Positions 8,845 through 33,620 of a stretch of 64,000 nucleotides of DNA are shown piece after piece; position 1 is the stretch's first letter; every line of letters begins with the position of its first letter. The notes under the pieces are model-generated. The model had not been told where the DNA came from, searched no databases, and saw only the letters and a list, made by a program, of their open reading frames with translations. A program made the translations under genes and the position numbers. Source of the stretch: Escherichia phage vB_EcoM_P8. The stretch lies in the sequence record PV390659.2; one strand, given 5' to 3'.

Positions 8845-8876
8845 GTTTACATCTCTGTTCTTCCATGGTACTATAC
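8845..8876 (+). promoter_or_regulatory. Early promoter
   Basis: GTTTAC at 8845-8850 with an A/T-rich -10-like region ~17 bp downstream; precedes the 8918 ORF. Confidence 0.4.
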
Positions 8877-8917
8877 AACTATCGGCAATACTGCTGACGA
8901 TTAAAGAGGAAAATAAT

Positions 8918-14981: not shown

Positions 14982-16160
14982 ATGAGCACAGTTTTTAATA
15001 CAAATCCAGTTGATGTTTTAAAAGAACCTATGTTCTTCGGTTCAGGTCTTGGTATTGCGCGTTATGATATTCAACGTCATAAAGTTTTTGAAGATTTAAC
15101 CGAAAAGCAGTTGTCATTTTTCTGGCGTCCTGAAGAAGTAAACTTGATGATGGATGCTGCACAATTTAACAAGCTTCCTCAGTATCAGCAAGATATTTTT
15201 ACTAATAACCTGAAGTATCAATCACTTTTGGATAGCATTCAGGGTCGTGCACCGTCTGCTGTACTTATGTCGTTAATTTCAGACCCAAGTCTTGATACAT
15301 GGGTTGCTACATGGACTTTTAGTGAAACTATTCACAGTCGTTCATATACTCATATCATGCGAAATCTTTATACTGATCCATCAAAGGTATTTGATGAGAT
15401 TGTATTAGATGAAGATATTATGAAACGTGCTGAGTCCATTGGTCGTTATTACGATGATGTTCTCAATAAGACCCGTGAATGGGAAAATGCTAAAGAATTT
15501 GTAGAACTAGCTAAAGAATCTCCTGATGCTGATTTTCGTTTAAATCGAGCTATTAAACAAGAAGCCGAAGCTAAACGAGCACTAATGAAATCTCTTTATC
15601 TTTGCCTTCATGTAATCAACGCATTGGAAGCTATTCGTTTTTACGTATCTTTCGCATGTACCTTTAACTTCCATAAAAACATGGAAATCATGGAAGGTAA
15701 TGCTAAGATTATGAAGTTTATTGCGCGTGATGAGCAACTTCATCTTAAAGGCACTCAATATATTATTCGTCAACTTCAACTTGGCACTGACGGTGATGAA
15801 TGGGTTAAAATTGCTCAAGAGTGTGAACAAGAAGCAGTTGATATTTTCATGGAAGTTAACCGTCAAGAAAAAGACTGGGCAGTTCATTTATTTAAAGATG
15901 GCGATGTTCCTGGATTAAATACAAATAGCATGTGGAGCTTTATTGATTACTTAACTGTATCTCGTATGAAACAGTGCGGTCTTCCATGCCCAATTACCGA
16001 TGCTCCGGTTAAACATCCATATCCTTGGATTCGTGAATACCTTAATTCTGATAATGTTCAATCCGCGCCGCAAGAAGTAGAACTGTCATCTTACCTTGTT
16101 GCACAGATTGATAATGATGTTGATGATAAAGTTATGATGAGTTTTAAAAAATATTTTTAA
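14982..16160 (+). CDS. nrdB: Ribonucleotide reductase small subunit, uninterrupted (no intron)
   Basis: 392-aa continuous ORF with di-iron ligand motifs (e.g. ETIHSRSY); no intervening intron or endonuclease ORF. Confidence 0.95.
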   Translation: MSTVFNTNPVDVLKEPMFFGSGLGIARYDIQRHKVFEDLTEKQLSFFWRPEEVNLMMDAAQFNKLPQYQQDIFTNNLKYQSLLDSIQGRAPSAVLMSLISDPSLDTWVATWTFSETIHSRSYTHIMRNLYTDPSKVFDEIVLDEDIMKRAESIGRYYDDVLNKTREWENAKEFVELAKESPDADFRLNRAIKQEAEAKRALMKSLYLCLHVINALEAIRFYVSFACTFNFHKNMEIMEGNAKIMKFIARDEQLHLKGTQYIIRQLQLGTDGDEWVKIAQECEQEAVDIFMEVNRQEKDWAVHLFKDGDVPGLNTNSMWSFIDYLTVSRMKQCGLPCPITDAPVKHPYPWIREYLNSDNVQSAPQEVELSSYLVAQIDNDVDDKVMMSFKKYF

Positions 16161-16164
16161 GGAG

Positions 16165-16186
16165 TGGGCCGCAAGGCCCATTTTAT
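16165..16186 (+). terminator. Hairpin after nrdB (terminator and/or split-SD structure for denA)
   Basis: TGGGCC-GCAA-GGCCCA followed by TTTTATT; lies between SD GGAG (16161-16164) and the denA ATG (16188). Confidence 0.45.
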
Positions 16187-16187
16187 T

Positions 16188-17775
<1,588 letters not shown>

Positions 17776-17778
17776 GCT

Positions 17779-17833
17779 GTTTACAAGTCCCTCGTGATGT
17801 GTTACAGTAGTCTTACTGACATAACATGAGGAC
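17779..17833 (+). promoter_or_regulatory. Early promoter plus conserved leader, copy 1 (upstream of alc)
   Basis: GTTTACAAGTCCCTCGTGATGTGTTACAGTAGTCTTACTGACATAACATGAGGAC; 50/55 identical to copy at 33241-33295. Confidence 0.5.
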
Positions 17834-17839
17834 TTTATG

Positions 17840-18343
17840 ATGGATTTGCAGCTTATTACTACTGAGATGGTCGTTGAAGCATACGGTGATACTACAGATG
17901 GGATTTCTGTATTTAAAGGAAATCGTCGAGTTGGATATATCACCGATCTTAAGAAAGATTTAGCTAAGCAAGTCAAGCGGAAAACGACCATTAAAGAATA
18001 TCGAAATCGTCGTCTTGAGCAAGCCCGTGATATGCTTCCTGACGCAGTTGAGGAGATGAAAGTCTTTTTAGAAAATCAGCTTGCGAAATATGATTGTGAT
18101 GTGTTCATTAATCAGACTCAACCTAATGTTCATATTAACAACTGTAAATGCTATATCATCGTTAATCCTTTGACGGGAAAACATCGTCTTGGAATTAGTA
18201 ATCCAAATCGTAGCGCATCAGATATGGCAGAAGATGTTGAGGCATGCTTTAAAATTTCTAAATCTCCTGCTGAACATCATATTTTAATTAACGGTCTTTC
18301 TCAAGACGATATTATAGAGGTTATTAAAACTTTATGCAATTAA
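17840..18343 (+). CDS. alc: Probable Alc (host transcription terminator targeting cytosine DNA)
   Basis: 167 aa from the second Met, matching recalled T4 Alc length and its map position between gene 63 and pseT; assignment by size and synteny only. Confidence 0.55.
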   Translation: MDLQLITTEMVVEAYGDTTDGISVFKGNRRVGYITDLKKDLAKQVKRKTTIKEYRNRRLEQARDMLPDAVEEMKVFLENQLAKYDCDVFINQTQPNVHINNCKCYIIVNPLTGKHRLGISNPNRSASDMAEDVEACFKISKSPAEHHILINGLSQDDIIEVIKTLCN

Positions 18344-18687
18344 GTAATACGACAGCAGGCTTGCTATTAATTGTAATTGCATTGGGCGGAACTTCTTTAA
18401 TTTTAAAAAATAAAATTGAAAGATTAGAAACGTCTGTTGTAGAAATTACAAAAACGGCCAATGAAAACGCTTTAGCATTAAATAATTTGCGAATTCAGTA
18501 TAATTATATTGATGCGATGAATAATAAAAATCGTGAGGCAATTGCTGCTATTGAGCGTGAAAATGAAAAACTGTGCAAAGACGCAAAGAAGGCGGATGTG
18601 GTGGCTCATAAGCCAGGATTGGTTGAAAAACAAATCAACAACTCCTTCAACAAGTTCGCAGAAGACATCCAGGACCTTTCTAAATGA
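18334..18687 (+). CDS. Putative i-spanin (Rz-like; pseT.3-like)
   Basis: 117 aa; N-terminal hydrophobic segment (AGLLLIVIALGGTSLIL) followed by a charged helical region; immediately upstream of a lipoprotein ORF. Confidence 0.5.
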   Translation: MQLSNTTAGLLLIVIALGGTSLILKNKIERLETSVVEITKTANENALALNNLRIQYNYIDAMNNKNREAIAAIERENEKLCKDAKKADVVAHKPGLVEKQINNSFNKFAEDIQDLSK

Positions 18688-18983
18688 TTAAACTATCAGC
18701 AGTAATATTATCTATTGGTCTTCTAGTTGGTTGTTCGACAAAGCCTCTAGAAGTAAAGAAAGAAACAGTTCATCCTAATTGGCCTGTACAAATAAAGTCA
18801 TATGATGAAGCTAAACTATCTTGGCAAGTTAAAGTTATTGATGGTAAAGCTTGGGTCGGTATGCCATTCGAAGATTCCCAGGAATTTCGTATTTGGCTTA
18901 ATGATGTAAAACGATATGTGCATGATCAGAAAACTATGATATGTTATTATCGCCAAGAGTTAAAAGAGGATAAATGCAAATGA
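18684..18983 (+). CDS. Putative o-spanin lipoprotein (Rz1-like; pseT.2-like)
   Basis: 99 aa; signal peptide with lipobox (LSIGLLVGCST). Confidence 0.55.
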   Translation: MIKLSAVILSIGLLVGCSTKPLEVKKETVHPNWPVQIKSYDEAKLSWQVKVIDGKAWVGMPFEDSQEFRIWLNDVKRYVHDQKTMICYYRQELKEDKCK

Positions 18984-19206
18984 TTTCATGGCATCAATTT
19001 GAACATCTCAAAGGATTGATTTATGAATCCGAGATGGCTGCAATGATTTATGGACGCCAGATTCAGCGGTTAGAATCTTTACCTCCAACTAATGATGTTT
19101 TATTAGCTCAATCTCGGGCTAATCTTAAAAATGAATACCAAAATAAGTGGGGTAAAGCATCTAAAGACCTGCATGATTATATTCAATCATTAGTTGAGAA
19201 AAATAA

Positions 19207-19210
<4 letters not shown>
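18974..19210 (+). CDS. Hypothetical protein
   Basis: 78-aa ORF, overlapping stop/start with neighbours. Confidence 0.45.
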
Positions 19211-20414
<1,204 letters not shown>

Positions 20415-20611
20415 TGGCGTGGCATCATGAAACTTGGTCTATTGTTATTGTAAATAGCGGTTTAGTTGGTACTAGTAATGGGCAATTTTGTGTATTCACT
20501 AGTGAAATCAGAGCTTGGGAGGAATGTCTTAAATTAAGAGAAAAGAATCCTGATGTTGAACTAACAGTAAAGAAAACTAAACTGCCTTTACCATGGAAAA
20601 CTTATGAATAA
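20415..20611 (+). CDS. Hypothetical protein (cd.5-like position)
   Basis: 65-aa ORF from ATG at 20415 (MAWHHETWS...). Confidence 0.4.
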
Positions 20612-20804
20612 CATAGAAAAGATTTATCGACTTTGTGATAAAATTGAAAAAGAAAAGAAATATCTATTTTGTTTATGGCCTATTGTTGATGGAAGAGTAG
20701 ACTTAGATATTCTTGATTATGAAACAGAAGACATAGTAGATGGTTCAACTTTTGATAATGCGTTGGATGTTATTAATTGGCTTGAAGAAAATTATGTGAG
20801 GTGA
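20604..20804 (+). CDS. Hypothetical protein
   Basis: 66-aa ORF. Confidence 0.4.
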   Translation: MNNIEKIYRLCDKIEKEKKYLFCLWPIVDGRVDLDILDYETEDIVDGSTFDNALDVINWLEENYVR

Positions 20805-21082
20805 ATATGTTTCCGACTTATTCTAAAATCGTAGAAGTAGTGTTTAGTCAAATTATCGCTAATAATATGTTTGAAAAGCTTGATAACGCAGCCGAGCTTC
20901 GAATTCATGCTCAAGTGACTCATGTATTGAACACTTTGCTTCCAGACCAGGTGGATTCTATTGCAATTACGCTGTATCCGGGTTCCGCGCATATCATTGT
21001 CGTATTTGGTCTTGATGCTGAGCTAGTCATCAAAGGTGATATTCGCTTTGAATCACAGACATCAGAATTCAAGGCAATTTAA
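20801..21082 (+). CDS. Hypothetical protein
   Basis: 93-aa ORF. Confidence 0.4.
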   Translation: MNMFPTYSKIVEVVFSQIIANNMFEKLDNAAELRIHAQVTHVLNTLLPDQVDSIAITLYPGSAHIIVVFGLDAELVIKGDIRFESQTSEFKAI

Positions 21083-21084
21083 TA

Positions 21085-21128
21085 GTTTACTTTTTGGTAG
21101 AGTTGTGATATTATAGCTCTACCAAAAA
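21085..21128 (+). promoter_or_regulatory. Early promoter with 12-bp inverted repeat around the -10
   Basis: GTTTAC 21085-21090; TATTAT 21109-21114; arms TTTTTGGTAGAG (21091-21102) and CTCTACCAAAAA (21117-21128). Confidence 0.5.
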
Positions 21129-21145
21129 CAAATGAGGAAATTGAA

Positions 21146-21382
21146 ATGCTAAGTGAAAAACCAATTACTGTTAAAGAATTTCAAGAAAAAGTTAAACTAT
21201 TTGCTCAGGAATTGGTAAATAAGGTTTCTGAACGATTTCCTGAAACATCGGTTCGTGTTATTACCGAAACTCCTCGTTCAGTATTAGTAATTGTGAATCC
21301 AGGTGATGGTGACCAAATAACACATCTTAAACTGGATTTTGATGGATTAGTTGAAGCACAAAGGGTGTATGGCGTACTATGA
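21146..21382 (+). CDS. Hypothetical protein
   Basis: 78-aa ORF with SD GAGGA (21133-21137) and early-type promoter upstream. Confidence 0.5.
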   Translation: MLSEKPITVKEFQEKVKLFAQELVNKVSERFPETSVRVITETPRSVLVIVNPGDGDQITHLKLDFDGLVEAQRVYGVL

Positions 21383-21717
21383 TGAATTTAACTGATATAA
21401 TTGATAATTGTCTTGAAAATGATACTGGCGATCATAGAGCGCTTGATTCTGAAACAGCACAGTTCATTAGAATAACTTTAATGAATGATACTCTAGTGAA
21501 TAGCATTCATCCTTCTGTGTATGATGCTATTATTGTGACGAAGTATCCAGTTGAGCTTCACAAAAAGATGGCTGGTGCAATTTTCATTGATAAGAAAAAC
21601 CGCTTTAAAGATGGGCAGAATATAATTAGTTCTGTTATTAAAAGTATAACTAAACTTCGTCACGAAATTTATCGTGTTGAAACTGCTAAATCTGCTTATC
21701 TGGTGATTATGAAATGA
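21379..21717 (+). CDS. Hypothetical protein
   Basis: 112-aa ORF; stop overlaps cd start. Confidence 0.45.
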   Translation: MMNLTDIIDNCLENDTGDHRALDSETAQFIRITLMNDTLVNSIHPSVYDAIIVTKYPVELHKKMAGAIFIDKKNRFKDGQNIISSVIKSITKLRHEIYRVETAKSAYLVIMK

Positions 21718-22295
21718 AAGCGAGTACAGTACTTCAAATTGCATATTTAGTATCACAAGAATCAAAATGTTGCTCCTGGAAGGTAGGAGCAGTAATTGAA
21801 AAGAATGGACGTATTATTTCTACCGGATATAATGGTTCACCTGCCGGGGGTGTGAATTGCTGCGATTATGCTGCTGAGCAAGGTTGGTTGCTGAATAAGC
21901 CTAAACATACTATCATTCAAGGTCATAAGCCTGAATGTGTATCATTTGGTTCAACTGATCGTTTTGTCTTGGCGAAAGAACATCGCAGCGCTCACTCTGA
22001 ATGGTCGTCTAAAAATGAAATTCATGCTGAACAAAATGCGATTTTGTTTGCTGCACGAAATGGTTCTTCAATTGAAGGTGCTACTATGTATGTAACACTT
22101 TCTCCTTGCCCAGATTGTGCAAAAGCAATAGCTCAATCTGGAATTAAAAAGCTAGTTTATTGCGAAACATACGATAAAAATAAACCTGGCTGGGATGATA
22201 TTCTGCGAAATGCAGGTATTGAAGTGTTTAATGTTCCTAAGAAAAACTTGAATAAGTTAAACTGGGAAAATATCAACGAATTCTGTGGTGAATAA
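21714..22295 (+). CDS. cd: dCMP deaminase
   Basis: 193 aa; cytidine/dCMP deaminase zinc-binding motifs (HAEQNAI ... PCPDCAKAI). Confidence 0.9.
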   Translation: MKASTVLQIAYLVSQESKCCSWKVGAVIEKNGRIISTGYNGSPAGGVNCCDYAAEQGWLLNKPKHTIIQGHKPECVSFGSTDRFVLAKEHRSAHSEWSSKNEIHAEQNAILFAARNGSSIEGATMYVTLSPCPDCAKAIAQSGIKKLVYCETYDKNKPGWDDILRNAGIEVFNVPKKNLNKLNWENINEFCGE

Positions 22296-22531
22296 TGAAA
22301 TTTCGTTTGGTACAGCTCACAGCAATTAGTTCTTATTCTAACGAGAACATTTCATTTGCTGTAGAGTATAAGAAATATTTTTTCTCTAAATGGAAGCAGT
22401 ATTATAAGTCAGAATGGGTTTGTATTGATAGACCTTATAGTTGGAAATCTGATTTAGAAAAATGCCAAAAGTTGCTTTCCACTCTTAAAGAACGTGGAAC
22501 AACCCATATTAAAACTGTGATAGGCAAATAA
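22295..22531 (+). CDS. Hypothetical protein (31.2-like position)
   Basis: 78-aa ORF. Confidence 0.4.
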   Translation: MKFRLVQLTAISSYSNENISFAVEYKKYFFSKWKQYYKSEWVCIDRPYSWKSDLEKCQKLLSTLKERGTTHIKTVIGK

Positions 22532-22840
22532 ATGAAACTGACGACTGAACAAAAAGTAGCAATTCGTGAAATTTTGAAAACTAAATTGTCCATGGGTATT
22601 TCAAACGTGGTTTTTGAAAAGTCTGATGGTACTATTCGTACTATGAAAGGTACTCGTGATGCAGACTTTATGCCAACCATGCAAACCGGTAAATTGACTG
22701 AATCTACTCGGAAAGAATCTACTGATATGATTCCAGTATTTGATGTTGAACTCGGTGCATGGCGAGGTTTTTCTATTGACAAATTGATTTCCGTTAATGG
22801 CATGAAAGTTGAGCATTTGCTTCAATTTATTGGTAAATAA
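22532..22840 (+). CDS. Hypothetical protein (31.1-like position)
   Basis: 102-aa ORF. Confidence 0.45.
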   Translation: MKLTTEQKVAIREILKTKLSMGISNVVFEKSDGTIRTMKGTRDADFMPTMQTGKLTESTRKESTDMIPVFDVELGAWRGFSIDKLISVNGMKVEHLLQFIGK

Positions 22841-22896
22841 ATGCTTTAAGAATTATTTGTTATTATTAATTCATCTGTTAACAAAAAGGAAAAACG

Positions 22897-23232
22897 ATGT
22901 CTGAAGTACAACAGCTACCAATTCGTGCTGTCGGTGAATATGTTATTTTAGTTTCTGAACCTGCACAAGCCGGTGATGAAGAAGTTACAGAATCAGGACT
23001 TATTATCGGTAAACGTGTCCAAGGTGAAGTTCCTGAACTGTGTGTAGTTCACTCTGTTGGTCCTGATGTTCCTGAAGGTTTCTGCGAAGTTGGTGATTTG
23101 ACTTCTCTTCCAGTTGGTCAAATTCGAAACGTTCCGCATCCTTTTGTAGCTCTGGGTCTTAAGCAGCCAAAAGAAATTAAACAAAAATTCGTTACTTGTC
23201 ACTATAAAGCTATTCCGTGTCTTTATAAGTGA
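22897..23232 (+). CDS. 31: Head assembly co-chaperonin gp31 (GroES-like)
   Basis: 111 aa, [30 protein letters not shown]...; matches T4 gp31. Confidence 0.9.
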
Positions 23233-23379
23233 TATAAATAATAATATGAATTGGGTGTCGGAATAATAAGTTAACCGAACAATTCTATGTGGTAGTCTAC
23301 AACTGAGAGATCTGTCGAAAGAAGATGAAATTCAGAAGAACGTGACTACCGAGTTTTAATCTCTAACGAGAATTTTTAA

Positions 23380-23628
23380 ATGATTAAACAATTACAACAC
23401 GCTCTTGAACTGCAACGAAACGCATGGAATAATGGTCACGAAAACTATGGCGCATCTATTGATGTTGAAGCCGAAGCCCTTGAAATCCTGCGTTATTTCA
23501 AACATCTGAATCCTGCTCAAACTGCATTAGCTGCTGAGCTCCAGGAAAAAGATGAACTTAAATATGCTAAGCCTCTGGCTTCTGCTGCACGAAAAGCAGT
23601 TCGTCACTTTGTGGTAACACTGAAGTAA
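23380..23628 (+). CDS. rIII: Lysis inhibition accessory protein rIII
   Basis: 82 aa; size and position downstream of gene 31 as in T4. Confidence 0.65.
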   Translation: MIKQLQHALELQRNAWNNGHENYGASIDVEAEALEILRYFKHLNPAQTALAAELQEKDELKYAKPLASAARKAVRHFVVTLK

Positions 23629-24026
23629 TTTATTGGAGATTCACTGCCCTAGTGTGAGCTAAAATCGAGGAGCCGTCGAACTGTCTGATTAATGATTTGC
23701 GAATAATTATAGTTTTAAGACCCCGACAGTTTTACGGTGTACCTCTTGAATGTTATTCTTATAGCGGCAAGTGCATGCTACCCCGAGGTGATGGCCAATC
23801 GGGAGTACGCCTCAAGGCCTATATATCCATCAGTATATATCTTATCCTCGAGAAATCGAACCCGGAACCTTTAAGCTAACGGTGTGCAACAGATAAGAGC
23901 TATAAGGTATGATGACGGGTTTATGGTTATCCTGGTCGTTAAATATTCAAAAACCTATGTTCCCCTTGAGGGCTTGCGCAGGCAATGCCAATAAGTCCTG
24001 CATTTTCATTTAAAAGAGAATTTATA

Positions 24027-24203
24027 ATGGCAAAACAAGCTAAAGCAAAGAAAGCAGTTGAAAAGAAAGTTGGTGATTCTAAACGCGCTGGTTACAAGCG
24101 TGGGTCGAACTCTCGTATCAATCAAACTGTTGAGAAGATCATGCGCCGAGCACGTGCGGTTCTTCGAGATGATGCTTCTCGTTTTGGTAAGCAGAAAGCA
24201 TAA
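24027..24203 (+). CDS. Hypothetical small basic protein (30.9-like position)
   Basis: 58 aa from MAKQAKAKKAVEKK...; followed by a strong terminator. Confidence 0.45.
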   Translation: MAKQAKAKKAVEKKVGDSKRAGYKRGSNSRINQTVEKIMRRARAVLRDDASRFGKQKA

Positions 24204-24208
24204 GTTGA

Positions 24209-24236
24209 GGACTCCTTCGGGAGTCCTTTTTTATTT
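24209..24236 (+). terminator. Intrinsic terminator
   Basis: GGACTCC-TTCG-GGAGTCC (UUCG tetraloop) followed by TTTTTTATTTT. Confidence 0.65.
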
Positions 24237-24256
24237 TCCAAAGATTACACAAAGTT

Positions 24257-24306
24257 GTTTACAGTATAGTTCCTTTGTGATAGTATTATCTCATACAAAC
24301 AAAGGA
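24257..24306 (+). promoter_or_regulatory. Early promoter with inverted repeat reaching the downstream SD
   Basis: GTTTAC 24257-24262; A/T-rich -10 region; arms TCCTTTGT (24271-24278) / ACAAAGGA (24299-24306), the 3' arm overlapping SD AAGGAG. Confidence 0.45.
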
Positions 24307-24313
24307 GAATAAA

Positions 24314-24646
24314 ATGAAAACGATTAATCTGAACGCTACAGTTAAAACTAAATGCTTCAACGGTAAATATGATGAAACTATGTGGTTCTTAATGGCAGTT
24401 GAAGGTGATATTATTGAAGTAGAAACAACAGAAGGTATGGGAACAGATTTCACCTTTACAATTCAAGTTCATAATTTCTTTACTGGTTGGATTTATGAAT
24501 TGAATACAGTAATCGTTGGAAAAATTGAACAAAATGAATTAGGTGAATGGTATTATGTTACAGCTCGCCAACGTGCCGAACGCTTAATTGAGAAGATGAA
24601 AAAAGTTGGTAAACTTGACATGCAGCACTGGAAAGTAGTAAAATAA
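24314..24646 (+). CDS. Hypothetical protein
   Basis: 110-aa ORF with SD AAGGAG and early promoter upstream. Confidence 0.5.
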   Translation: MKTINLNATVKTKCFNGKYDETMWFLMAVEGDIIEVETTEGMGTDFTFTIQVHNFFTGWIYELNTVIVGKIEQNELGEWYYVTARQRAERLIEKMKKVGKLDMQHWKVVK

Positions 24647-24648
24647 TT

Positions 24649-24688
24649 GTTTACTTTGGTACAGGATATGATATTATATACCTGTACC
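24649..24688 (+). promoter_or_regulatory. Early promoter with 8-bp inverted repeat around the -10
   Basis: GTTTAC 24649-24654; TATTAT 24673-24678; arms GGTACAGG (24658-24665) / CCTGTACC (24681-24688). Confidence 0.5.
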
Positions 24689-24714
24689 GCAATTAAACAT
24701 CTCGGAGAATAAAA

Positions 24715-25080
24715 ATGAATTACATCAACTTTGAACGTAAATATGTTTCTAACGGTATTGCAGGTTCTATTGATACTATCTGCCTTTGGAAACATCAAAA
24801 TGGATCAGTATGCGAAATTGAACAGTATATGACTCCTAACTACGTTTATATGCGATTTGAAAATGGCATCACGGTTTCAATCACGAAAGAAGGTTCTTCT
24901 TTTAAAATCGCATTGGATGATGATTTTCGTCAACGCGATTTAGGGACTCATCCTTGCTGGAATGGCGTTAATCGCAAGCTTCTGGTTAAAACTTGGATTC
25001 GTCATATTCTGAGTAACAGAGCTAAACCTGAGCATCTTGAAGCAATCTTTGATGTAGTTCTTAACGAATTTGATATTTAA
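24715..25080 (+). CDS. Hypothetical protein
   Basis: 121-aa ORF with SD GGAGAA and early promoter upstream. Confidence 0.5.
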   Translation: MNYINFERKYVSNGIAGSIDTICLWKHQNGSVCEIEQYMTPNYVYMRFENGITVSITKEGSSFKIALDDDFRQRDLGTHPCWNGVNRKLLVKTWIRHILSNRAKPEHLEAIFDVVLNEFDI

Positions 25081-25090
25081 AATAAAATGA

Positions 25091-25104
25091 GGGGCTTCGG
25101 CCCC
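25091..25104 (+). terminator. Stable UUCG hairpin (weak terminator or RNA stability element)
   Basis: GGGGC-TTCG-GCCCC; downstream run is not U-rich. Confidence 0.35.
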
Positions 25105-25121
25105 TTACTGAGGAAAATACT

Positions 25122-25409
25122 ATGTTTATGACTACTTATTTTGATACCCGCAAAAATTTCTGTGAAGTGGTTTTCTCTAAGGCACCTAAAGACCTTCCTG
25201 CTCATTTGCAGCCTACTAGTGAATCGATTAAAAACTATGTTAATGTAGTCTGCCCTTTAGAGTTCCGTACTGTAAATGGCCGCGATACTTTAGCTATCAC
25301 TAAACTTAATCGTGAAATTGACATTGACCCTTCAATTGCGCGTGAAATTAACATTTCTGATATTGGCGGCGGTAATGTTAAATCGCATGGTTTTCAGATG
25401 AGGTTCTAA
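25122..25409 (+). CDS. Hypothetical protein
   Basis: 95-aa ORF. Confidence 0.45.
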   Translation: MFMTTYFDTRKNFCEVVFSKAPKDLPAHLQPTSESIKNYVNVVCPLEFRTVNGRDTLAITKLNREIDIDPSIAREINISDIGGGNVKSHGFQMRF

Positions 25410-25606
25410 TGAAATTCTTTTTAGGTCAAACTGTTGAATTAAAGGGAGTTGGTATACCTGGATTAATTTCTAAGGTTCTACCTCCATTTAAATGGAGTGG
25501 TATTCAAATAAAAGAGGCTTATATTGTTTCCTGGGTAGATGGAAATGAAGACCTTCGTATGGGTGATGAATTATCTCCTATTTACGGATTAAAGGAATTA
25601 GTATGA
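25409..25606 (+). CDS. Hypothetical protein
   Basis: 65-aa ORF; overlapping start/stop with neighbours. Confidence 0.4.
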   Translation: MKFFLGQTVELKGVGIPGLISKVLPPFKWSGIQIKEAYIVSWVDGNEDLRMGDELSPIYGLKELV

Positions 25607-25809
25607 ATATAATTAATAAGATTTTTGGAATTCAGTACATTAAGGTCACATATAAAGTAACGTATAAAGGTCCGTATACCGATGAATATGAAGAGCCGCA
25701 AGTTCAGTCTATTATATTAGAAAAGGACCCTAACTGGCCAGTTGAATTTCGTCTTCCTTGCTATGGTCATTGGGCTGATGTTGAAATTATAAGTATTGAA
25801 AATGTCTGA
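25603..25809 (+). CDS. Hypothetical protein
   Basis: 68-aa ORF. Confidence 0.4.
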   Translation: MNIINKIFGIQYIKVTYKVTYKGPYTDEYEEPQVQSIILEKDPNWPVEFRLPCYGHWADVEIISIENV

Positions 25810-26260
25810 GTTAGAGATAAGAAGCAATTTTAGATGGCCATCATGCGCATTAAGTAATTTCGCCCAATGGCCTTTCGTTATGGATGGTATTCAATTTGGA
25901 GGTCTCGAAGGATTCCTCCAAGGATGCAAGGTGAAAAATGTTGAACAACAGCGTCGTATATTTGGGTTATCCGGGCTTGCCGCCCAACAAGCTGGAAGGT
26001 CTTATGCTAGAGCTCAGGACCGTGGCACGTTGTTCTGGCTTGGAACTCCGTTTTCAAGATATTCCGAAGCATGGAAAGAATTATACACAAATGCATATTT
26101 TGAAGCAGCGATCCAAAACAGGGGCTTTCGCGATGCATTACAAGCCTCGAAAGGAAAAGTTTTGAAGCACAGCATGGCTAGTGGTCTAACAAAAGATGAT
26201 ACAATACTAACCGAAGCTGAATTTATTGATGTGTTAAATCTATTAAGAGACTCTCTATGA
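25796..26260 (+). CDS. Hypothetical protein (30.3-like position; possible NADAR/YbiA-like fold, unverified)
   Basis: 154-aa ORF; family suggestion is from memory of T4 30.3 annotation, not confirmed here. Confidence 0.4.
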   Translation: MKMSELEIRSNFRWPSCALSNFAQWPFVMDGIQFGGLEGFLQGCKVKNVEQQRRIFGLSGLAAQQAGRSYARAQDRGTLFWLGTPFSRYSEAWKELYTNAYFEAAIQNRGFRDALQASKGKVLKHSMASGLTKDDTILTEAEFIDVLNLLRDSL

Positions 26261-27120
26261 AGCCTACTATTTTGACTGATATTGATGGAGTATGTTTAAG
26301 CTGGCAATCAGGCCTTCCTTATTTTGCTCAGAAATATAATCTTCCGTTAGAACATATTTTAAAAATGATCCAAGATGAGAAATTTATTTCTCCGGGTAAA
26401 CTCTTTAATTGTGATGAAGAACTTGGTGTCAAGTTAATTGAAAAATACAATCGTTCAGATTTTATTCGTTACTTGTCTCCGTATAAAGATGCTCTGTGTG
26501 TAATTAACAAATTAAAAGAAGATTATAATTTTGTAGCTGTTACAGCATTGGGTGATTCTATTGACGCTCTGTTGAATCGTCAATTTAATTTGAATGCTCT
26601 TTTTCCTGGTGCCTTCTCAGAAGTAATGATGTGTGGTCATGATTCTTCAAAAGAAGAGTTGTTCAAAAAGGCAAAAGAGAAATATAACGTAATTTGTTAC
26701 ATTGACGATCTCGCTCACCATTGCGATCATGCGAGTGAAATATTAAATGTTCCTGTTTATTGGATGGCGCGAGGAGAGCGTGACAATATTCCAAAAACTG
26801 CGCAGCGAGTTTATACATGGAATGATGTAGAAAATAAGCTTTTTTCGCCGAAGGAAAATAAAGAAAGTTTTGATAGTGAAAAAGCTATAAAAGATGTAAT
26901 TGAGAAGATGGTTAAAAACGATTCTTTTCGTTGGAACACTACCTGGAGAACTCCTGGATTTAATCCGTATAACCCATATTATACACATCCATATAATCCA
27001 TATTATACACACCCGTATCATATGAATCCATTCCATACGTGGAGTTATACTAAGCCTGGTGATGCAGGGTATTTTAATAGATTTACTAGTGGTGATAATA
27101 TTTTCCAAGGAGCATTCTAA
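26257..27120 (+). CDS. HAD-like hydrolase with C-terminal Pro/Tyr-rich repeat (30.2-like)
   Basis: 287 aa; N-terminal DIDGV motif; C-terminal NPYNPYYTHPYNPYYTHPYHMNPFH repeat. Confidence 0.5.
   Translation: MKPTILTDIDGVCLSWQSGLPYFAQKYNLPLEHILKMIQDEKFISPGKLFNCDEELGVKLIEKYNRSDFIRYLSPYKDALCVINKLKEDYNFVAVTALGDSIDALLNRQFNLNALFPGAFSEVMMCGHDSSKEELFKKAKEKYNVICYIDDLAHHCDHASEILNVPVYWMARGERDNIPKTAQRVYTWNDVENKLFSPKENKESFDSEKAIKDVIEKMVKNDSFRWNTTWRTPGFNPYNPYYTHPYNPYYTHPYHMNPFHTWSYTKPGDAGYFNRFTSGDNIFQGAF
26962..27035 (+). repeat. In-frame tandem repeat (24-bp period) in the 3' end of the HAD-like gene
   Basis: CCATATTATACACA occurs at 26974-26987 and 26998-27011, encoding NPYYTHPY units. Confidence 0.6.
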
Positions 27121-27389
27121 TGTTTGTCGTTCACACTATTTATGAAAATGAAGGTAATACTACACGTGATTACGGTCACGTAAATCAATTTTTTAGATGC
27201 AATCCAGAATTCCGAGCTCAAAAAGACGAACGAATTTTTAAAAAATGTGTAGAGCAAGGTTTCATTTACGTCAAGCACTGGATGCAAGGAAATAAAGTTA
27301 GAACTACATATCATAAGTCTTTGCCTGAGCTTAATGATGAATTGATTTATAATAGAGCTGTAAACCAAACTTTGAAGGATGAGCAATGA
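27120..27389 (+). CDS. Hypothetical protein (30.1-like)
   Basis: 89-aa ORF directly upstream of DNA ligase. Confidence 0.45.
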   Translation: MFVVHTIYENEGNTTRDYGHVNQFFRCNPEFRAQKDERIFKKCVEQGFIYVKHWMQGNKVRTTYHKSLPELNDELIYNRAVNQTLKDEQ

Positions 27390-28849
27390 TTCTTAAAATT
27401 CTGAATGAAATAGCATCTATTGGATCAACTAAGCAGAAGCAAGCAATTCTTGAAAAGAATAAAGATAATGAATTGCTTAAACGGGTATATCGTCTGACTT
27501 ATTCTCGTGGGTTACAGTATTATATCAAGAAATGGCCTAAACCTGGTATTGCTACCCAGAGTTTTGGAATGCTGACTATTACCGATATGCTTGACTTCAT
27601 TGAATTCACGTTAGCTACTCGGAAATTGACCGGAAATGCTGCAATTGAGGAATTGACTGGATATATCACCGATGGTAAAAAGGATGATGTTGAAGTTTTG
27701 CGTCGAGTGATGATGCGAGACCTTGAATGCGGTGCTTCAGTATCTATTGCAAACAAAGTTTGGCCAGGTTTAATTCCTGAACAACCTCAAATGCTGGCAA
27801 GTTCTTATGATGAAAAGGGCATTAGTAAGAATATCAAGTTTCCAGCTTTTGCACAGTTAAAAGCAGATGGAGCTCGGTGTTTTGCTGAAGTCCGAGGTGA
27901 TGAATTAGATGATGTTCGTCTTTTATCACGAGCTGGTAATGAATATCTAGGATTAGATCTTCTTAAGGAAGAGTTAATCAAAATGACTGCTGAAGCCCGC
28001 CAGATTCATCCAGAAGGTGTGTTAATTGATGGCGAATTGGTATACCATGAGCAAGTTAAAAAGGAACCAGAAGGCCTAGATTTTCTTTTTGATGCTTATC
28101 CTGAAATTAGTAAAGCTAAAGAATTCGCCGAAGTAGCGGAATCTCGTACTGCTTCTAATGGAATCGCCAATAAATCCTTAAAAGGAACCATTTCTGAAAA
28201 AGAAGCTCAATGCATGAAGTTTCAGGTCTGGGATTATGTCCCGTTGATAGAAATATACGGTCTTCCGGCGTTTCGTTTAAAATATGATGTACGTTTTTCT
28301 AAACTAGAACAAATGACATCAGGATATGATAAAGTAATTTTAATTGAAAACCAGGTAGTAAATAACCTAGATGAAGCTAAGGTAATTTATAAAAAGTATA
28401 TTGACCAAGGTCTTGAAGGTATTATTCTCAAAAATACCGATGGATTGTGGGAAAATGCTCGTTCAAAAAATCTCTATAAATTTAAAGAAGTAATTGATGT
28501 TGATTTAAAAATTGTAGGAATTTATCCTCACCGTAAAGACCCTACTAAAGCAGGTGGATTTATTCTTGAATCAGAGTGTGGAAAAATTAAAGTAAATGCT
28601 GGTTCAGGCTTAAAAGATAAAGCCGGTGTAAAATCACATGAACTTGACCGTACTCGCATTATGGAAAACCAAAATTATTATATTGGAAAAATTCTAGAGT
28701 GCGAATGCAACGGTTGGCTAAAATCTGATGGCCGCACTGATTACGTTAAATTATTTCTTCCGATTGCGATTCGTTTACGTGAAGATAAAACTAAAGCTAA
28801 TACATTCGAGGATGTATTTGGTGATTTTCATGAGGTAACTGGTCTATGA
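27386..28849 (+). CDS. 30: ATP-dependent DNA ligase
   Basis: 487 aa (T4 ligase length); adenylation lysine motif (AQLKADGAR). Confidence 0.9.
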   Translation: MILKILNEIASIGSTKQKQAILEKNKDNELLKRVYRLTYSRGLQYYIKKWPKPGIATQSFGMLTITDMLDFIEFTLATRKLTGNAAIEELTGYITDGKKDDVEVLRRVMMRDLECGASVSIANKVWPGLIPEQPQMLASSYDEKGISKNIKFPAFAQLKADGARCFAEVRGDELDDVRLLSRAGNEYLGLDLLKEELIKMTAEARQIHPEGVLIDGELVYHEQVKKEPEGLDFLFDAYPEISKAKEFAEVAESRTASNGIANKSLKGTISEKEAQCMKFQVWDYVPLIEIYGLPAFRLKYDVRFSKLEQMTSGYDKVILIENQVVNNLDEAKVIYKKYIDQGLEGIILKNTDGLWENARSKNLYKFKEVIDVDLKIVGIYPHRKDPTKAGGFILESECGKIKVNAGSGLKDKAGVKSHELDRTRIMENQNYYIGKILECECNGWLKSDGRTDYVKLFLPIAIRLREDKTKANTFEDVFGDFHEVTGL

Positions 28850-29034: not shown

Positions 29035-29055
29035 AGGCCTTCGGGCCTTTAATTT
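29035..29055 (+). terminator. Hairpin upstream of alt late promoter
   Basis: AGGCC-TTCG-GGCCT followed by TTAATTTT. Confidence 0.4.
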
Positions 29056-29063
29056 TATAAATA
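29056..29063 (+). promoter_or_regulatory. Late promoter (TATAAATA) upstream of alt
   Basis: TATAAATA ~24 nt upstream of the alt ATG; Alt is a virion protein. Confidence 0.5.
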
Positions 29064-29086
29064 GAATAAACACTAGAGAGGCTATG

Positions 29087-31180: not shown

Positions 31181-31183
31181 ATC

Positions 31184-33241
31184 ATGGAACTTATTACAGA
31201 ATTATTTGACGGCGCTTCGGCGCCGGTTGTTAACTTAAATCCCAAGCATAAAATACCTCAAATTTTTGCTATTCAAGCCGGTGAAGAAAGCGTGCTTCCT
31301 GGATTTAGATTTTGTACATACACCTCTGGCGGTGATACAAATAAAAACGTTAAGCCAGGCGATAAAATGATGCATATCGTAATGATAGGTGTCAATGAAA
31401 AGCTATCATTAGTTAAACTTAAAAACTTAGGTGGAAATCCAATTGGTGTCATTAATGCGGTTTTTGATACTGCTCTTCAAACAATGAAACAGTATAAAAT
31501 TGACGCATGCCTGTTCCGCGTACTAAAGAGTAAAACAAACGGTGCAGCTCGTCAAATGCAAGTTATTGCCGACCGTTTAGTACGTACCAAAGGAGCAGGT
31601 CGATATGTTCTTTTAAAGGAAATCTGGGACTATGATAAAAAGTATGCATATATTATGGTTTACCGTAAAAATGCTAATTTAGAAGACATTCCAGGTGTAC
31701 CTCCTATTTCAACTGAGTTATTCACAAAAGTTGAATCAAAGGTTGGTGATGTTTATGTAGACGTTAAAACAGGTAATGCTGTTCATAAAGCTGTCGCTGT
31801 TGCTGCTTCTATTGCCTTAGAAAATGATAAGCGCACGGATCAAGCTGTTATTCAGAAAACTAAAATTAGTCGTCGATTAGCAGCACAAGCTCAATACTCT
31901 ACTGTCGATGCTTCACTTCAGGGTGATAGCTTCGCTGCTAAGAAATATCAAGAGTTTGAATCTAAAGTTCCGGTATATAAAGCAGAAGGACCAATGAACT
32001 CCGGCGTTATTCAGGTTGGTTCAAACTTCAGCAAAGGAGCTATCGGTGGTATGAGAAGTGCTTCTCGTTTTAAATCTAATGATTATGAACTAGAAAGCTT
32101 CCGAAATCATATTGCATTGGCTCATGCACGTTTACGTGATCCATCTATCAAGCTGCAGAGCGATATAACATATCAAGGTTCTCAAGAATATTTAAAGAAT
32201 AAAGAATTTTTTGATTATAAAACTGATAAAATTTTAAGCGATCTCGCTGACATTAATATTTCTAATAGCTTTGATGTTATTAAGAAAATTATCAATGATT
32301 TAGTTAAAGGTTCTAAAGCCACGCCAGACGAAAAGGTAGCTATTGTTCAATTTGTCATGAATGGCATTTATAAATTGATTAATGAGTCTGCTTCTCAAGC
32401 GTATGAATATGCAAGTACTGAAGTACCCCCAAAAGGATTAACTCAGGCTGAGTCTGATGTAATTGAAGATTATTGCGCGGATTCATATGTTGAAATGAAC
32501 TCGTTCCTTTTAGGTAAACCGGATTCTACTCGTGAAGAATATATGGAACGAGCTATTAAACACATCGAGACGATGGATTCTGCTTTTGCCAAAGGATCAG
32601 TTCTTCCTCCAGGAACTACGCTTTACCGTGGCCAAGAAGTTACCTTTAAAACTTTACGTCATAATATTGAAAATAAAATGTTCTATTTTAAGAACTTCGT
32701 ATCCACATCGCTTAAACCAAATATCTTCGGTGAGTATGGTAAAAACTATATGGCTCTAGATGATTCCAGCGCAGTATTTTCTGGTGAAGGAGAAGGTTCT
32801 GTTGACGCAGAAGATTTGATGCATATGGGCAGTCACTCTGCTTATGCGAATGAAGATGCTGAAACTAGCGTAGGTATGGTAATAAAAGGAGCTGAGCGAA
32901 TCAAAGTTATCGTTCCGGGTCATTTATCAGGATTTCCGTCAGAAGCTGAAGTTATTTTACCACGTGGAATTTTGCTGAAGATTAATAAAGTGAGCACGTA
33001 CATGATGAAAGAAACTGCTTATAACAAGTATTTAATCGAAGGTACAATCGTTCCTCCTTCTGAACAATTAGAAGAATCGGTATATGATGGCGATCATCTG
33101 ATGGAAACTGGTGAAGTTCGTCCAATGGCTGGATTTAATCAATTCCTTGTAGAAGAATCAAAAGAAGAGGAAAACGAAGTTTCTCAAATCTTGGCTTCTT
33201 TGGTTAACATCAACGGAATGTCTAAAAAGTTCAAGATGTAG
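31184..33241 (+). CDS. Alt-like ADP-ribosyltransferase paralogue
   Basis: 685 aa; N-terminus MELITELFD... and C-terminal catalytic region (YRGQ, NFVSTSLK, EAEVILPRG) align with the upstream alt; central region diverged. Confidence 0.75.
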   Translation: MELITELFDGASAPVVNLNPKHKIPQIFAIQAGEESVLPGFRFCTYTSGGDTNKNVKPGDKMMHIVMIGVNEKLSLVKLKNLGGNPIGVINAVFDTALQTMKQYKIDACLFRVLKSKTNGAARQMQVIADRLVRTKGAGRYVLLKEIWDYDKKYAYIMVYRKNANLEDIPGVPPISTELFTKVESKVGDVYVDVKTGNAVHKAVAVAASIALENDKRTDQAVIQKTKISRRLAAQAQYSTVDASLQGDSFAAKKYQEFESKVPVYKAEGPMNSGVIQVGSNFSKGAIGGMRSASRFKSNDYELESFRNHIALAHARLRDPSIKLQSDITYQGSQEYLKNKEFFDYKTDKILSDLADINISNSFDVIKKIINDLVKGSKATPDEKVAIVQFVMNGIYKLINESASQAYEYASTEVPPKGLTQAESDVIEDYCADSYVEMNSFLLGKPDSTREEYMERAIKHIETMDSAFAKGSVLPPGTTLYRGQEVTFKTLRHNIENKMFYFKNFVSTSLKPNIFGEYGKNYMALDDSSAVFSGEGEGSVDAEDLMHMGSHSAYANEDAETSVGMVIKGAERIKVIVPGHLSGFPSEAEVILPRGILLKINKVSTYMMKETAYNKYLIEGTIVPPSEQLEESVYDGDHLMETGEVRPMAGFNQFLVEESKEEENEVSQILASLVNINGMSKKFKM

Positions 33242-33295
33242 TTTACAAGTCCCTCGTGTTGTGTTATAATAATCTTACTGACATAACATGAGGAA
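33241..33295 (+). promoter_or_regulatory. Early promoter plus conserved leader, copy 2
   Basis: GTTTACAAGTCCCTCGTGTTGTGTTATAATAATCTTACTGACATAACATGAGGAA; -10 TATAAT at 33265-33270. Confidence 0.55.
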
Positions 33296-33301
33296 CACAA
33301 A

Positions 33302-33592
33302 ATGAAATCTTCTTTACGCTTTTTAGGTCAAGAACTTGTAGTTGAAGGCGTTATTCCTGCTGATAACGCTTTTAATGAAGCAGTTTACGATGAATTTATC
33401 AAAATTTTTGGAACAGATAAAAAGTTCGGAATTTTTCCTTCTGAAAATTTTTCAAAGCCAGAACAGACTGAAAGCATTTTCCAGGGTGTAGTAACAGGTA
33501 AATTTGAATCAGAAGCTCCGGTAAAAATTGAAGTTTATATTGAAGACAGTTTAGTTGCTTCAGTTGCTGCTTTTATTTCATTCCGTAAATAA
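33302..33592 (+). CDS. Hypothetical protein
   Basis: 96-aa ORF with its own early promoter and SD (GAGGA); followed by a bidirectional terminator. Confidence 0.5.
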   Translation: MKSSLRFLGQELVVEGVIPADNAFNEAVYDEFIKIFGTDKKFGIFPSENFSKPEQTESIFQGVVTGKFESEAPVKIEVYIEDSLVASVAAFISFRK

Positions 33593-33597
33593 AAACA

Positions 33598-33615
33598 TGG
33601 GGACCGAAAGGTCCC
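33598..33615. terminator. Bidirectional terminator between convergent genes
   Basis: GGGGACC-GAAA-GGTCCCC with T-rich runs on both strands; lies between the 33302 ORF (+) and gene 54 (-). Confidence 0.6.
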
Positions 33616-33620
33616 CATTG

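Follow-up and report, generated by a model that had tools for sequence, protein, structure and literature searches.

A T4-type early promoter within a predicted hairpin over the ribosome-binding site: a candidate early-only translation gate before alc and alt.-3

Introduction

Bacteriophage T4 is a textbook example of timed gene expression, in which the shut-off of early-protein synthesis is usually credited to the silencing of early promoters and to RegB cleavage. The window analysed here, i.e. the whole stretch of 64,000 nt from Escherichia phage vB_EcoM_P8 (PV390659.2), raises a question that touches on this timing. A preliminary description, made from the letters of the window, had pointed out an early promoter-leader element of about 55 bp that occurs twice, and had proposed that its two ends are partly complementary, so that transcripts reading through from upstream could sequester the Shine-Dalgarno sequence (SD), while transcripts started at the local promoter could not. 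What is this element, why is it present in two nearly identical copies, and would it decide which RNAs are translated?

The logic is known from T4 itself. In genes e, soc, 49 and I-TevI, as well as in I-TevII, I-TevIII, mobE of phage Aeh1 and segB of T4, the SD, the AUG or both are hidden in RNA started upstream, and the shorter RNA made from an internal promoter is translated (PMC3014915). The first four genes had been cited as precedents, and correctly so.

Two copies of an early-promoter cassette

The window is a segment of a Tequatrovirus (T4-like) genome. It matches Escherichia phage vB_EcoM_BMB16 at 100% identity and many T4 relatives at 98%, and the gene annotations used here were mapped over from BMB16 and T4. 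Copy A of the element fills the intergenic space between rnlA and alc, beginning 4 nt past the TAA of rnlA, and copy B that between alt and alt.-3, where it overlaps the TAG of the second alt paralog (33239-33241), whose G doubles as the G of GTTTAC (Table 1). Both copies finish at the SD, 4-7 nt ahead of the ATG, and in both of them the hairpin described below starts 8-10 nt past the stop codon of the upstream gene.

Table 1. Features of the two loci in the window
Feature	Position	Strand	Remarks
rnlA (gene 63, RNA ligase 1 / tail-fibre attachment)	16651..17775	+	BMB16 annotation, T4 synteny; stop TAA 17773-17775
Copy A, -35 hexamer GTTTAC, T4 early-promoter form	17779..17784	+	
Copy A, hairpin 5' arm	17785..17809	+	whole -35/-10 spacer and -10 TACAGT (17803-17808); MFE structure
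Copy A, apical loop GUCU	17810..17813	+	MFE structure
Copy A, hairpin 3' arm	17814..17835	+	contains predicted +1 (about 17815) and SD GAGGA (17828-17832)
alc (inhibitor of host transcription)	17837..18343	+	ATG 17837; second ATG 17840 is the T4-annotated start; tblastn
Late-promoter consensus TATAAATA	29056..29063	+	just before first alt paralog
Two tandem full-length alt paralogs	29087-31180 and 31184-33241	+	annotation; repeat families D1, D3, D10, D11, D14
Copy B, -35 hexamer GTTTAC	33241..33246	+	
Copy B, hairpin 5' arm	33249..33269	+	spacer and most of -10 TATAAT (33265-33270, TGn before)
Copy B, hairpin 3' arm	33275..33296	+	contains predicted +1 (about 33277) and SD GAGGA (33290-33294)
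alt.-3 homolog (96 aa), served by copy B	33302..33592	+	annotation; ATG 33302
GC-rich hairpin at the end of the alt / alt.-3 unit, resembling a terminator on either strand	33597..33618	.	first terminator-like site 3' of copy B

Pairwise alignment of 17779-17833 with 33241-33295 bore out the reported identity of 50 positions out of 55, running from the G of GTTTAC to directly after GAGGA, with mismatches at 17797, 17805, 17807, 17810 and 17833. The distance between the copies, given earlier as 15.5 kb, is 15,462 bp. The flanks are dissimilar, being coding sequence upstream and differing spacers to the ATG downstream. In a repeat search of the whole window the pair emerged as family D7 (54 nt, 93% identity), the sole intergenic repeat of that quality. 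When each half of the element was searched for with up to 3 mismatches, matches in the window were limited to copies A and B, and 100 dinucleotide-preserving shuffles gave no match.

T4 holds both copies too, 53/54 identical, and in one metagenomic T4-like contig the two are identical at all 54 positions; the window phage has the most diverged pair among those seen. The two-copy consensus is GTTTACAAGTCCCTCGTGTTGTGTTATAGTAGTCTTACTGACATAACATGAGGA. A blastn search with copy A against 50,697 phage records gave 997 places in 499 records (nearly all whole genomes), a mean of about two each. Another 16 copies came from exact-pattern scans of IMG/VR and metagenomes, all 16 before alc or alt.-3; three IMG/VR matches (L004, L006, L009) were set aside as chance 17-mers in GC-rich, unrelated contigs. 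The search for further copies that had been suggested thus led back to the same two sites, in that every copy whose context was read out lay at alc or alt.-3, in the window, in IMG/VR and metagenomes and in GenBank phages. On these grounds a dispersed mobile element was ruled out.

Copies A and B are 0-4 differences apart in each genome examined, and each variant seen occurs in one of the two copies only. They certainly descend, therefore, from a recent common ancestor, and this descent is enough to account for the repeat itself, which could lead one to regard it as a neutral relic of duplication or gene conversion, its copies being alike as strong early promoters of recent common origin. We consider this extremely improbable, given that about 500 phage records retain two copies each, that the spacer and leader, which lie outside the promoter consensus, are conserved as well as the hexamers, and that the hairpin architecture before alc is kept in six other genera with unrelated arms (see below). 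The repeat is real and old, and the sameness of its copies may reflect either gene conversion or strong purifying selection, which leave the same picture here. The idea that such repeats could serve as substrates for recombination is reasonable, and its support is indirect, in that the Tequatrovirus alt.-3 cassette looks copied from the alc cassette. Deletion between A and B would remove DNA ligase and gene 31, and should therefore be lethal.

Each copy begins with a well-formed T4 early promoter (GTTTAC, an 18-nt spacer, TGn and TAnnnT). The promoter scan returned TTTACA-17-TACAGT at 17780-17808 for copy A and TTTACA-17-TATAAT at 33242-33270 for copy B, both with TG upstream of the -10. By eye, the DNA preceding the -35 of copy A is A/T-rich from -60 to -40 (AAAAATTATAAAAAATTTAT) and that preceding copy B moderately A/T-rich, each being the 3' end of a coding gene. 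Start sites were predicted from consensus spacing, about 7 nt past the -10 hexamer, which places them near 17815 and 33277 and gives leaders of 22-25 nt. The element is thus what it had been taken for, i.e. a T4-type early promoter followed by a leader of this length and then the SD; the GenBank records of T4 carry no promoter feature at either site. In its GTTTAC, spacer of 17-18 nt, TGn and TAnnnT, the element is like the early 'uber' promoters of T4 (UP/-35/TGn/-10; Hinton 2010, PMC2988021). The early-promoter consensus, however, accounts for no more than about 15 of the 54 identities: A and B agree in spacer and leader as well, and these two parts are complementary to each other.

Folding of read-through and promoter-initiated RNA

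Nearly all of the 54 nt make up one imperfect palindrome. In read-through RNA, each copy is predicted to fold into a hairpin of about 20 bp that begins directly behind GTTTAC and ends directly behind the SD, with a free energy of -21.4 kcal/mol in both cases (z -3.1 for A and -5.1 for B). The SD, GAGGA, is buried within the 3' arm of both hairpins, and the -10 hexamer forms the top of the 5' arm, beside the loop. The complementarity of the two ends noticed at first is therefore present, although it had been understated: it was described for AAGTCCCTC with GAGGAC only, whereas the palindrome takes in nearly the whole element. The promoter-initiated leaders, in contrast, fold at -7.0 kcal/mol (A) and -4.5 kcal/mol (B), with z-scores of +0.9 and +1.6, i.e. 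they are less structured than shuffled controls. A cmscan of 17500-33700 (E <= 1) gave no Rfam match on copy A or copy B.

Access to the ribosome-binding site was expressed as an opening cost, defined as the ensemble cost of unpairing positions -14 to +3 around the start codon (from the SD to the AUG). For copy A (alc) it amounts to 12.9 kcal/mol in read-through RNA vs 3.8 kcal/mol in promoter-initiated RNA; for copy B (alt.-3) the two values are 15.7 and 2.3 kcal/mol, and for the alc gene of T4 18.4 and 2.8 kcal/mol. Because the 5' arm is mostly the -35/-10 spacer, promoter-initiated RNA cannot form the hairpin, and the result is independent of the exact start site. Folding of the two transcript types had been proposed as a check of the idea, with the lack of a stable SD-sequestering structure as the outcome that would speak against it; such a structure was found, and in read-through RNA only. 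This and all the other computational predictions of the original proposal held.

The reading that we favour, and regard as rather probable, is that in both copies an early promoter sits inside an SD-masking hairpin, translation being possible only from the internally started RNA. Polymerase coming from upstream would transcribe the whole palindrome, at copy A as early or middle transcripts via nrdA/nrdB-denA-rnlA, at copy B as late transcripts from the TATAAATA promoter before alt. In such RNAs the spacer and -10 of the 5' arm would base-pair with the 3' arm, made up of the leader and its SD (GAGGA), and alc or alt.-3 would remain untranslated. Polymerase starting at the internal promoter, about 7 nt past the -10 and hence within the 3' arm, would produce an RNA devoid of the 5' arm, whose SD would be open and translated. 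Because early promoters are shut off minutes after infection, the synthesis of Alc, and in Tequatrovirus also that of Alt.-3, would be confined to the early period despite later RNA across the genes. This reading is built on the anatomy of the element, on its thermodynamics, on its conservation with covariation and on the rarity of such pairing in non-cognate combinations of promoter and leader, the last two of which are considered below.

Transcription across the two junctions

For the hairpin to matter, RNA from upstream must cross it. A terminator scan (16000-19000 around copy A) returned nothing resembling a terminator in the stretch from the upstream gene to the element at either copy, and an intrinsic terminator at the element itself was rejected, no U-tract and no scan match being present at either copy. 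Upstream of copy A, nrdB and nrdA have mapped T4 middle promoters (Hinton Table 1). Upstream of copy B, TATAAATA stands before alt, which is a late gene in T4 (PMC9697503), so that late RNA is expected to run over copy B and alt.-3 until it meets the hairpin at 33597-33618. From these known or predicted promoters, and from the empty terminator scan, we infer that read-through RNA would be made at both sites. A MotA-box-like ATGCTTCC...TACTAT at about 16598-16630 marks a putative middle promoter directly before rnlA, which is absent from the mapped T4 middle promoters (Hinton Table 1).

Omics data for T4 class alc and alt.-3 as early in RNA and in protein (PMC9697503 supplement), and rnlA as early in RNA and late in protein (PMC9697503). 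It should be noted that the class of early protein is the one expected from an early promoter alone as well. The T4 classes fit the proposed gate without proving it.

Conservation of the alc leader in other genera

The rnlA-alc junction was compared in twelve other genera of Straboviridae. In six of them (Gelderlandvirus, Karamvirus, Jiaodavirus, Winklervirus, Dhakavirus and Bragavirus) the same order was found, namely GTTTAC, a 5' arm, the -10 in the loop and an SD-bearing 3' arm (Table 2). These hairpins have z-scores from -3.2 to -5.7, and their opening costs are 9.7-16.3 kcal/mol in read-through RNA vs 1.0-4.6 kcal/mol in local RNA.

Table 2. Hairpin arms of the alc leader in six genera
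Genus	5' arm	3' arm
Gelderlandvirus	ATCTCCGTTTAGTT	AACTAAACGGAGAT
Karamvirus	TCTCCATTTG	CAAATGGAGA
Jiaodavirus	ATCCTCATCAG	CTGATGAGGAT
Winklervirus	TCCTCATTTCGTT	AACGAAATGAGGA
Dhakavirus	TCTCCTCAT	ATGAGGAGA
Bragavirus	AACCTCTCATTTT	AAAATGAGAGGTT

The other junctions differ. At alc of Providencia phage PSTCR6, a hairpin around the -10 ends before the SD, which is unmasked; Mosigvirus has no such hairpin at alc; the junctions of Acinetobacter phage Ac42, Tulanevirus and Nanhuvirus show other arrangements; and in Gaprivervirus VR7 an extra ORF is inserted, bearing an SD-masking hairpin of its own. The alc leaders of PSTCR6 and Mosigvirus, and those of alt.-3 in four other genera (see below), do without SD masking, which speaks against the favoured reading.

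In an arms-only alignment, 90% of the cells are paired; shuffling the columns lowers this to 64%, and shifting the partner by 1-3 columns to 43-50%. Both sides have changed in 10 of the 14 stem pairs, and the observed covariation score was reached by none of 500 shuffles, in an alignment that leans towards structure because the 5' arm is fixed by the -35 and the register of the 3' arm was chosen by hand at the stem base. Within Tequatrovirus, 7 of 10 stem substitutions preserve pairing and 3 disrupt it (our own tally), the preserving ones being transitions of C to U opposite G, G to A opposite U, A to G opposite U and U to C opposite G. In phage ph0021 the 5' arm carries four changes, and the fold is still at -21.3 kcal/mol. 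Judged from sequence comparison, compensatory changes may have preserved the masking of the alc SD in seven genera or more, a point that forms part of the more general reading taken up below.

The same data bear on whether the inverted repeat works as DNA instead, by affecting promoter strength or the open complex, or as a protein-binding or recombination site, with the RNA fold as a by-product. The 5' arm consists of the promoter spacer and the -10, so that any change in it alters the promoter too, and repeated promoter cassettes have been proposed as recombination sites in T4-like phages (PMC2839356, PMC4122927). However, the G-U pairs of the stem are C-A mismatches on the other strand, and because of them the fold of the sense RNA reaches -21 to -24 kcal/mol, vs -15 to -16 kcal/mol for the antisense RNA, a difference of 5-9 kcal/mol in favour of the sense strand. 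The seven preserving substitutions of Tequatrovirus are, moreover, of kinds that maintain pairing in RNA only, and the arms are wholly different in sequence in the other genera, which means that no protein-binding site is conserved. A role of the repeat as DNA thus seems very unlikely, and the favoured reading remains that of an RNA hairpin masking the SD.

Origin of the alt.-3 copy

In Gaprivervirus, Mosigvirus, Marfavirus and Karamvirus, the alt.-3 homologs also have a GTTTAC promoter, which follows the alt stop codon directly and has another spacer (a CACAAGGAAGTG-like motif). No gating was found at alt.-3 in these four genera, the opening-cost differences being 0.7-2.9 kcal/mol. Because alt.-3 is gated in Tequatrovirus only, the alc cassette was probably copied there. 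The identity of the Tequatrovirus alt.-3 cassette is 0.89 to Tequatrovirus alc, 0.81 to Dhakavirus alc and at most 0.75 to other alt.-3 cassettes, and it is most likely, as far as such resemblance can tell, that the alc cassette replaced an original hairpin-less promoter-leader of alt.-3 in an ancestor of Tequatrovirus.

Mosigvirus presents what could be the reverse case. The spacer motif ACACCAAGGAAGGTGT and the leader TATCAACAACAYGAGGA of its alc gene resemble those of alt.-3 cassettes, with identities of 0.79 and 0.78 to the alt.-3 type vs at most 0.71 to alc cassettes, on a background of about 0.70. Given this small margin, the transfer of an alt.-3-type cassette to alc is suggestive only.

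Other early promoters of a T4-type genome

A complete, unannotated Tequatrovirus genome, DCP2, was scanned for promoters of the GTTTAC type with an SD and an ORF behind them, which gave 42 candidates, mostly early promoters and all on one strand. The gating difference (opening cost in read-through RNA minus that in local RNA) was at least 9 kcal/mol in 9 of the 42 promoter-leaders, vs 37 of 1722 (2.15%) chimeras made of non-cognate promoters and leaders, many of the latter between paralogous cassettes; complementarity between spacer and SD is thus about ten times commoner in cognate than in chimeric combinations. With the leaders of alc and alt.-3, the gene's own promoter takes first or second place, and the competitor at the top is the paralogous cassette. 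Besides alc and alt.-3, the gated set of DCP2 comprises a RegB-type endoribonuclease gene, denV, a Mod-type ADP-ribosyltransferase gene, gene 1, a 30.8 homolog and unknowns. The gated 30.8 homolog is found in the window as well, at 24257; the promoter of gated gene 1 bears a MotA box, and is therefore a middle promoter; and two of the gated unknowns carry a second pair of near-identical cassettes.

It is possible, and we offer it as a tentative generalization, that cassettes with an early promoter in a hairpin act as a general early-only translation gate in T4-type phages, their products never being made from read-through middle or late RNA, and that they move by ectopic conversion, the alc cassette having gone to alt.-3 in Tequatrovirus, an alt.-3 cassette perhaps to alc in Mosigvirus, with the second DCP2 pair as another case. 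About one in five of the DCP2 promoter-leaders would be gated in this way.

The scan also brought out hairpins of another kind. Among the 42 leaders, 18 have a hairpin with z <= -3, and about 10 of these hairpins enclose the -10 only, without reaching the SD (two such cases in the window lie at 21085 and 24649). Early-promoter hairpins of T4 must therefore serve something besides SD masking, which is our main reservation about the gate, and the SD overlap seen at alc and alt.-3 could be an add-on to that other function. The hairpins might accordingly be, in the main, attenuators or terminators of the PeSL (promoter-early stem-loop) type, or protectors of the 3' end of rnlA and alt mRNA, which would insulate transcription units or make the upstream mRNA more stable, the overlap with the SD being incidental or secondary. 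Stem-loops between the -35/-10 boxes or over them are the commonest PeSL layout, and one of them strongly cut the expression of a downstream lacZ (PMC2839356); the position of both hairpins so close behind the upstream stop codon would suit such a role as well. However, the hairpins are followed by CUUUAUGAUGG (A) and ACACAAAAUG (B), in which a U-tract is absent, and the terminator scan was empty there, although a hairpin lacking a U-tract may still attenuate transcription. In addition, the 3' arm of the alc hairpin coincides with the SD in all seven genera with this design despite the turnover of the arms, which is not required of a mere terminator or stabiliser, and the tenfold excess of cognate spacer-SD complementarity argues in the same direction. 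As the main explanation, attenuation or 3'-end protection is unlikely in our estimation. It is compatible with SD masking, and such a second function probably coexists with it and could even be the primary one.

Relation to known systems

With T4 e, soc, 49 and I-TevI, copies A and B share a stable SD-bearing hairpin and an internal start, here a predicted one, inside the hairpin. The difference lies in the promoter. In those genes the internal promoter is late (late or middle in 49 and some of the endonucleases), and translation is delayed until late, whereas copies A and B have a sigma-70 early promoter; the cassette would hence work the other way round in time, limiting translation to the early period. 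They also differ in that the 5' arm is here the promoter spacer itself, and in that the cassette is present in two near-identical copies. To our knowledge, all established promoter-in-hairpin devices delay translation until late.

If the proposed mechanism is true, the cassette is a mirror-image cis device, which makes a gene blind to all read-through RNA, and by which a potentially harmful takeover protein such as Alc would be made in the first minutes only. It would also give a reason for a near-invariant 54-nt non-coding element in about 500 genomes, and a function to part of the PeSL stem-loops. As a compact part of about 55 nt, the cassette could be of use in synthetic circuits that need to ignore transcriptional read-through.

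Neither alc nor alt.-3 is named among the examples of the 2010 review, in which alc has 0 occurrences (PMC3014915), and no description of an alc leader hairpin was found in the literature searched; older, print-only T4 literature could contain one.

The coat/replicase junction of phages MS2 and Qbeta (PMC2978339) offers a further likeness, in that a ribosome-binding site is closed by upstream RNA and structure sets which RNA is translated. There, however, the structure is opened by upstream translation, whereas copies A and B would be open by virtue of a different transcription start. A ribosome terminating on the upstream gene should leave the hairpin closed, since the stop codon of that gene is 8-10 nt short of the stem.

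Close relatives of the element are the PeSLs (Arbiol et al. 2010, PMC2839356; Comeau et al. 2014, PMC4122927). As described in the two papers, a PeSL is likewise a stop-to-ATG unit with an early sigma-70-type promoter, a G-T-paired stem-loop often over the -35/-10, an SD and a start codon, and, like copies A and B, PeSLs recur within a genome and have been linked to recombination. The same papers present them as multi-copy families of hyperplastic regions, next to indels and ORFans, with the stem-loop read as a terminator or attenuator. Copies A and B, in contrast, are exactly two, 13-15 kb apart, between conserved flanking genes and devoid of a U-tract; over 499 phage records there are about two copies per genome, which is not the multi-copy, hyperplastic or indel-associated pattern. 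That the 3' arm is the SD, as in copies A and B, is a feature unmentioned in the accessible text of the PeSL papers, which places the stem-loops of PST/T4 PeSLs upstream of the promoter, unlike those of copies A and B. The cassette is thus the e/soc/49/I-TevI logic applied to early promoters, and at the same time a subclass of PeSL cassettes. For the T4/PST pair, the promoter consensus reported is TTTACW-N17-TAYWAT (PMC2839356, PMC4122927). Copy B fits it exactly, and the TACAGT of copy A is off at one position, with G for W.

Further promoters associated with hairpins

In the window, a third early promoter whose -35/-10 spacer is complementary to its own SD was found upstream of the 30.8 homolog (see the table). 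The computed cost of opening the RNA around the start codon is 10.9 kcal/mol for the read-through RNA, compared with 0.2 kcal/mol for the promoter-initiated RNA. While the design of this element is the same as that of the alc/alt.-3 cassette (the early promoter and leader preceding both genes), its sequence is unrelated. The long (~110 nt) non-coding spacer upstream of the promoter also contains a weak Rfam match to the Rhizobiales sRNA Atu_C8 (24159-24242; E = 0.006); its 31.4 bits fall short of the gathering score of 50, and it is probably a chance match.

Two more early promoters, one between cd.3 and cd.2 and one upstream of the 30.7 homolog, are surrounded by near-perfect hairpins. Because these hairpins enclose only the -10 and end before reaching the SD, they provide no gating, i.e. 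no masking of the SD in read-through RNA; they form a 'short' class, for which an explanation other than SD gating is needed. As for the 12-bp cd.3/cd.2 hairpin, the T4 record (NC_000866) carries a misc_feature at 133300-133313, described as 'inverted complement of previously reported sequence; corrects the early promoter Pe133295'. The corrected stretch corresponds to window 21103-21116, and matches the hairpin loop in length (14 nt) and roughly in position. Apparently, the loop stood inverted in older reports of the T4 sequence, which could reflect either a sequencing artefact or a genuine inversion between inverted repeats.

Features of the promoter, alt and terminator regions (window coordinates unless another source is named)
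Feature	Position	Sequence
30.8-homolog promoter-leader	24257-24316	GTTTAC...TCCTTTGT...TAGTAT...ACAAAGGAG
Short hairpin, cd.3/cd.2 intergenic promoter	21085-21146	arms TTTTTGGTAGAG / CTCTACCAAAAA
Short hairpin, promoter 5' of 30.7 homolog	24649-24717	arms GGTACAGGATAT / ATATACCTGTACC
DCP2 cassette pair	DCP2 73165 (segment L044 ~23365), 125323 (segment L045 ~25723)	GTTTACAAGACTGTTC(C/T)TC(T/C)GTGGTA(T/C)TATTACCCTATCAACTACGGAGGAACAGAAAATG
~40-nt early-promoter family	8845-8884; DCP2 56717, 97529, 145858	GTTTACATCTCTGTTCTTCCATGGTACTATACAACTATC
Mosigvirus alc vs alt.-3 likeness	segments L017 1441-1501, L029 (AV112 alc upstream), L026 1142-1201	spacer ACACCAAGGAAGGTGT, leader TATCAACAACAYGAGGA
VR7 78-aa ORF region	segment L015 1188-1260	hairpin arms GGTTCCATCA / TGATGAGGACC
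Tandem alt paralogs	29087-31180, 31184-33241	
alt.-3 start	33319-33352	CTTTTTAGGTCAAGAACTTGTAGTTGAAGGCGTT
30.5-homolog start	25417-25450	
MotA-box lookalike	16598-16630	ATGCTTCC-N14-TACTAT
GC-rich terminator-type hairpins	25082-25109, 45526-45553, 47113-47140	GGGGCTTCGGCCCC; GGGACC..GGTCCC variant
Terminator-type hairpin 5' of alt late promoter	~29034-29051	AAAGGCCTTCGGGCCTTT

Duplicated cassettes and related genera

In the complete Tequatrovirus genome DCP2 (OR780565.1), two further early promoter-leader cassettes, located 52 kb apart, are nearly identical to each other, so that the alc/alt.-3 cassette is not the only duplicated gate cassette. Each has a 15-bp SD-masking hairpin, and ORFs of unknown function, 175 and 37 aa long respectively, lie downstream. 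In addition, an early-promoter family with about 40 nt in common occurs at no fewer than three loci, and repeated promoter blocks seem to be common in these T4-like genomes.

The alc promoter-leader of Mosigvirus has no SD hairpin and is similar to the one that precedes alt.-3 in this genus; the sequences hint at a cassette exchange in the direction opposite to that in Tequatrovirus. In the Gaprivervirus phage VR7, an additional ORF of 78 aa with an Alc-like annotation separates rnlA from alc; this ORF has its own SD-masking hairpin upstream, as well as a terminator.

The alt region and terminator-type hairpins

Two full-length alt (ADP-ribosyltransferase) paralogs lie in tandem in the window, with patches of ~70-80% DNA identity. 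In T4, by contrast, alt is followed by the remnants alt.-1 and alt.-2, and therefore the cassette copy preceding alt.-3 is downstream of an intact second alt in vB_EcoM_P8, but of a decayed one in T4. The starts of alt.-3 and of the 30.5 homolog, which both encode small early proteins, are 71% identical, and the two may be paralogs.

A sequence directly upstream of rnlA resembles a middle promoter with a MotA box; Table 1 of Hinton (2010) gives no mapped T4 middle promoter for the matching position. Finally, GC-rich terminator-type hairpins with common flanks recur in the window, and a similar one is found directly upstream of the alt late promoter.
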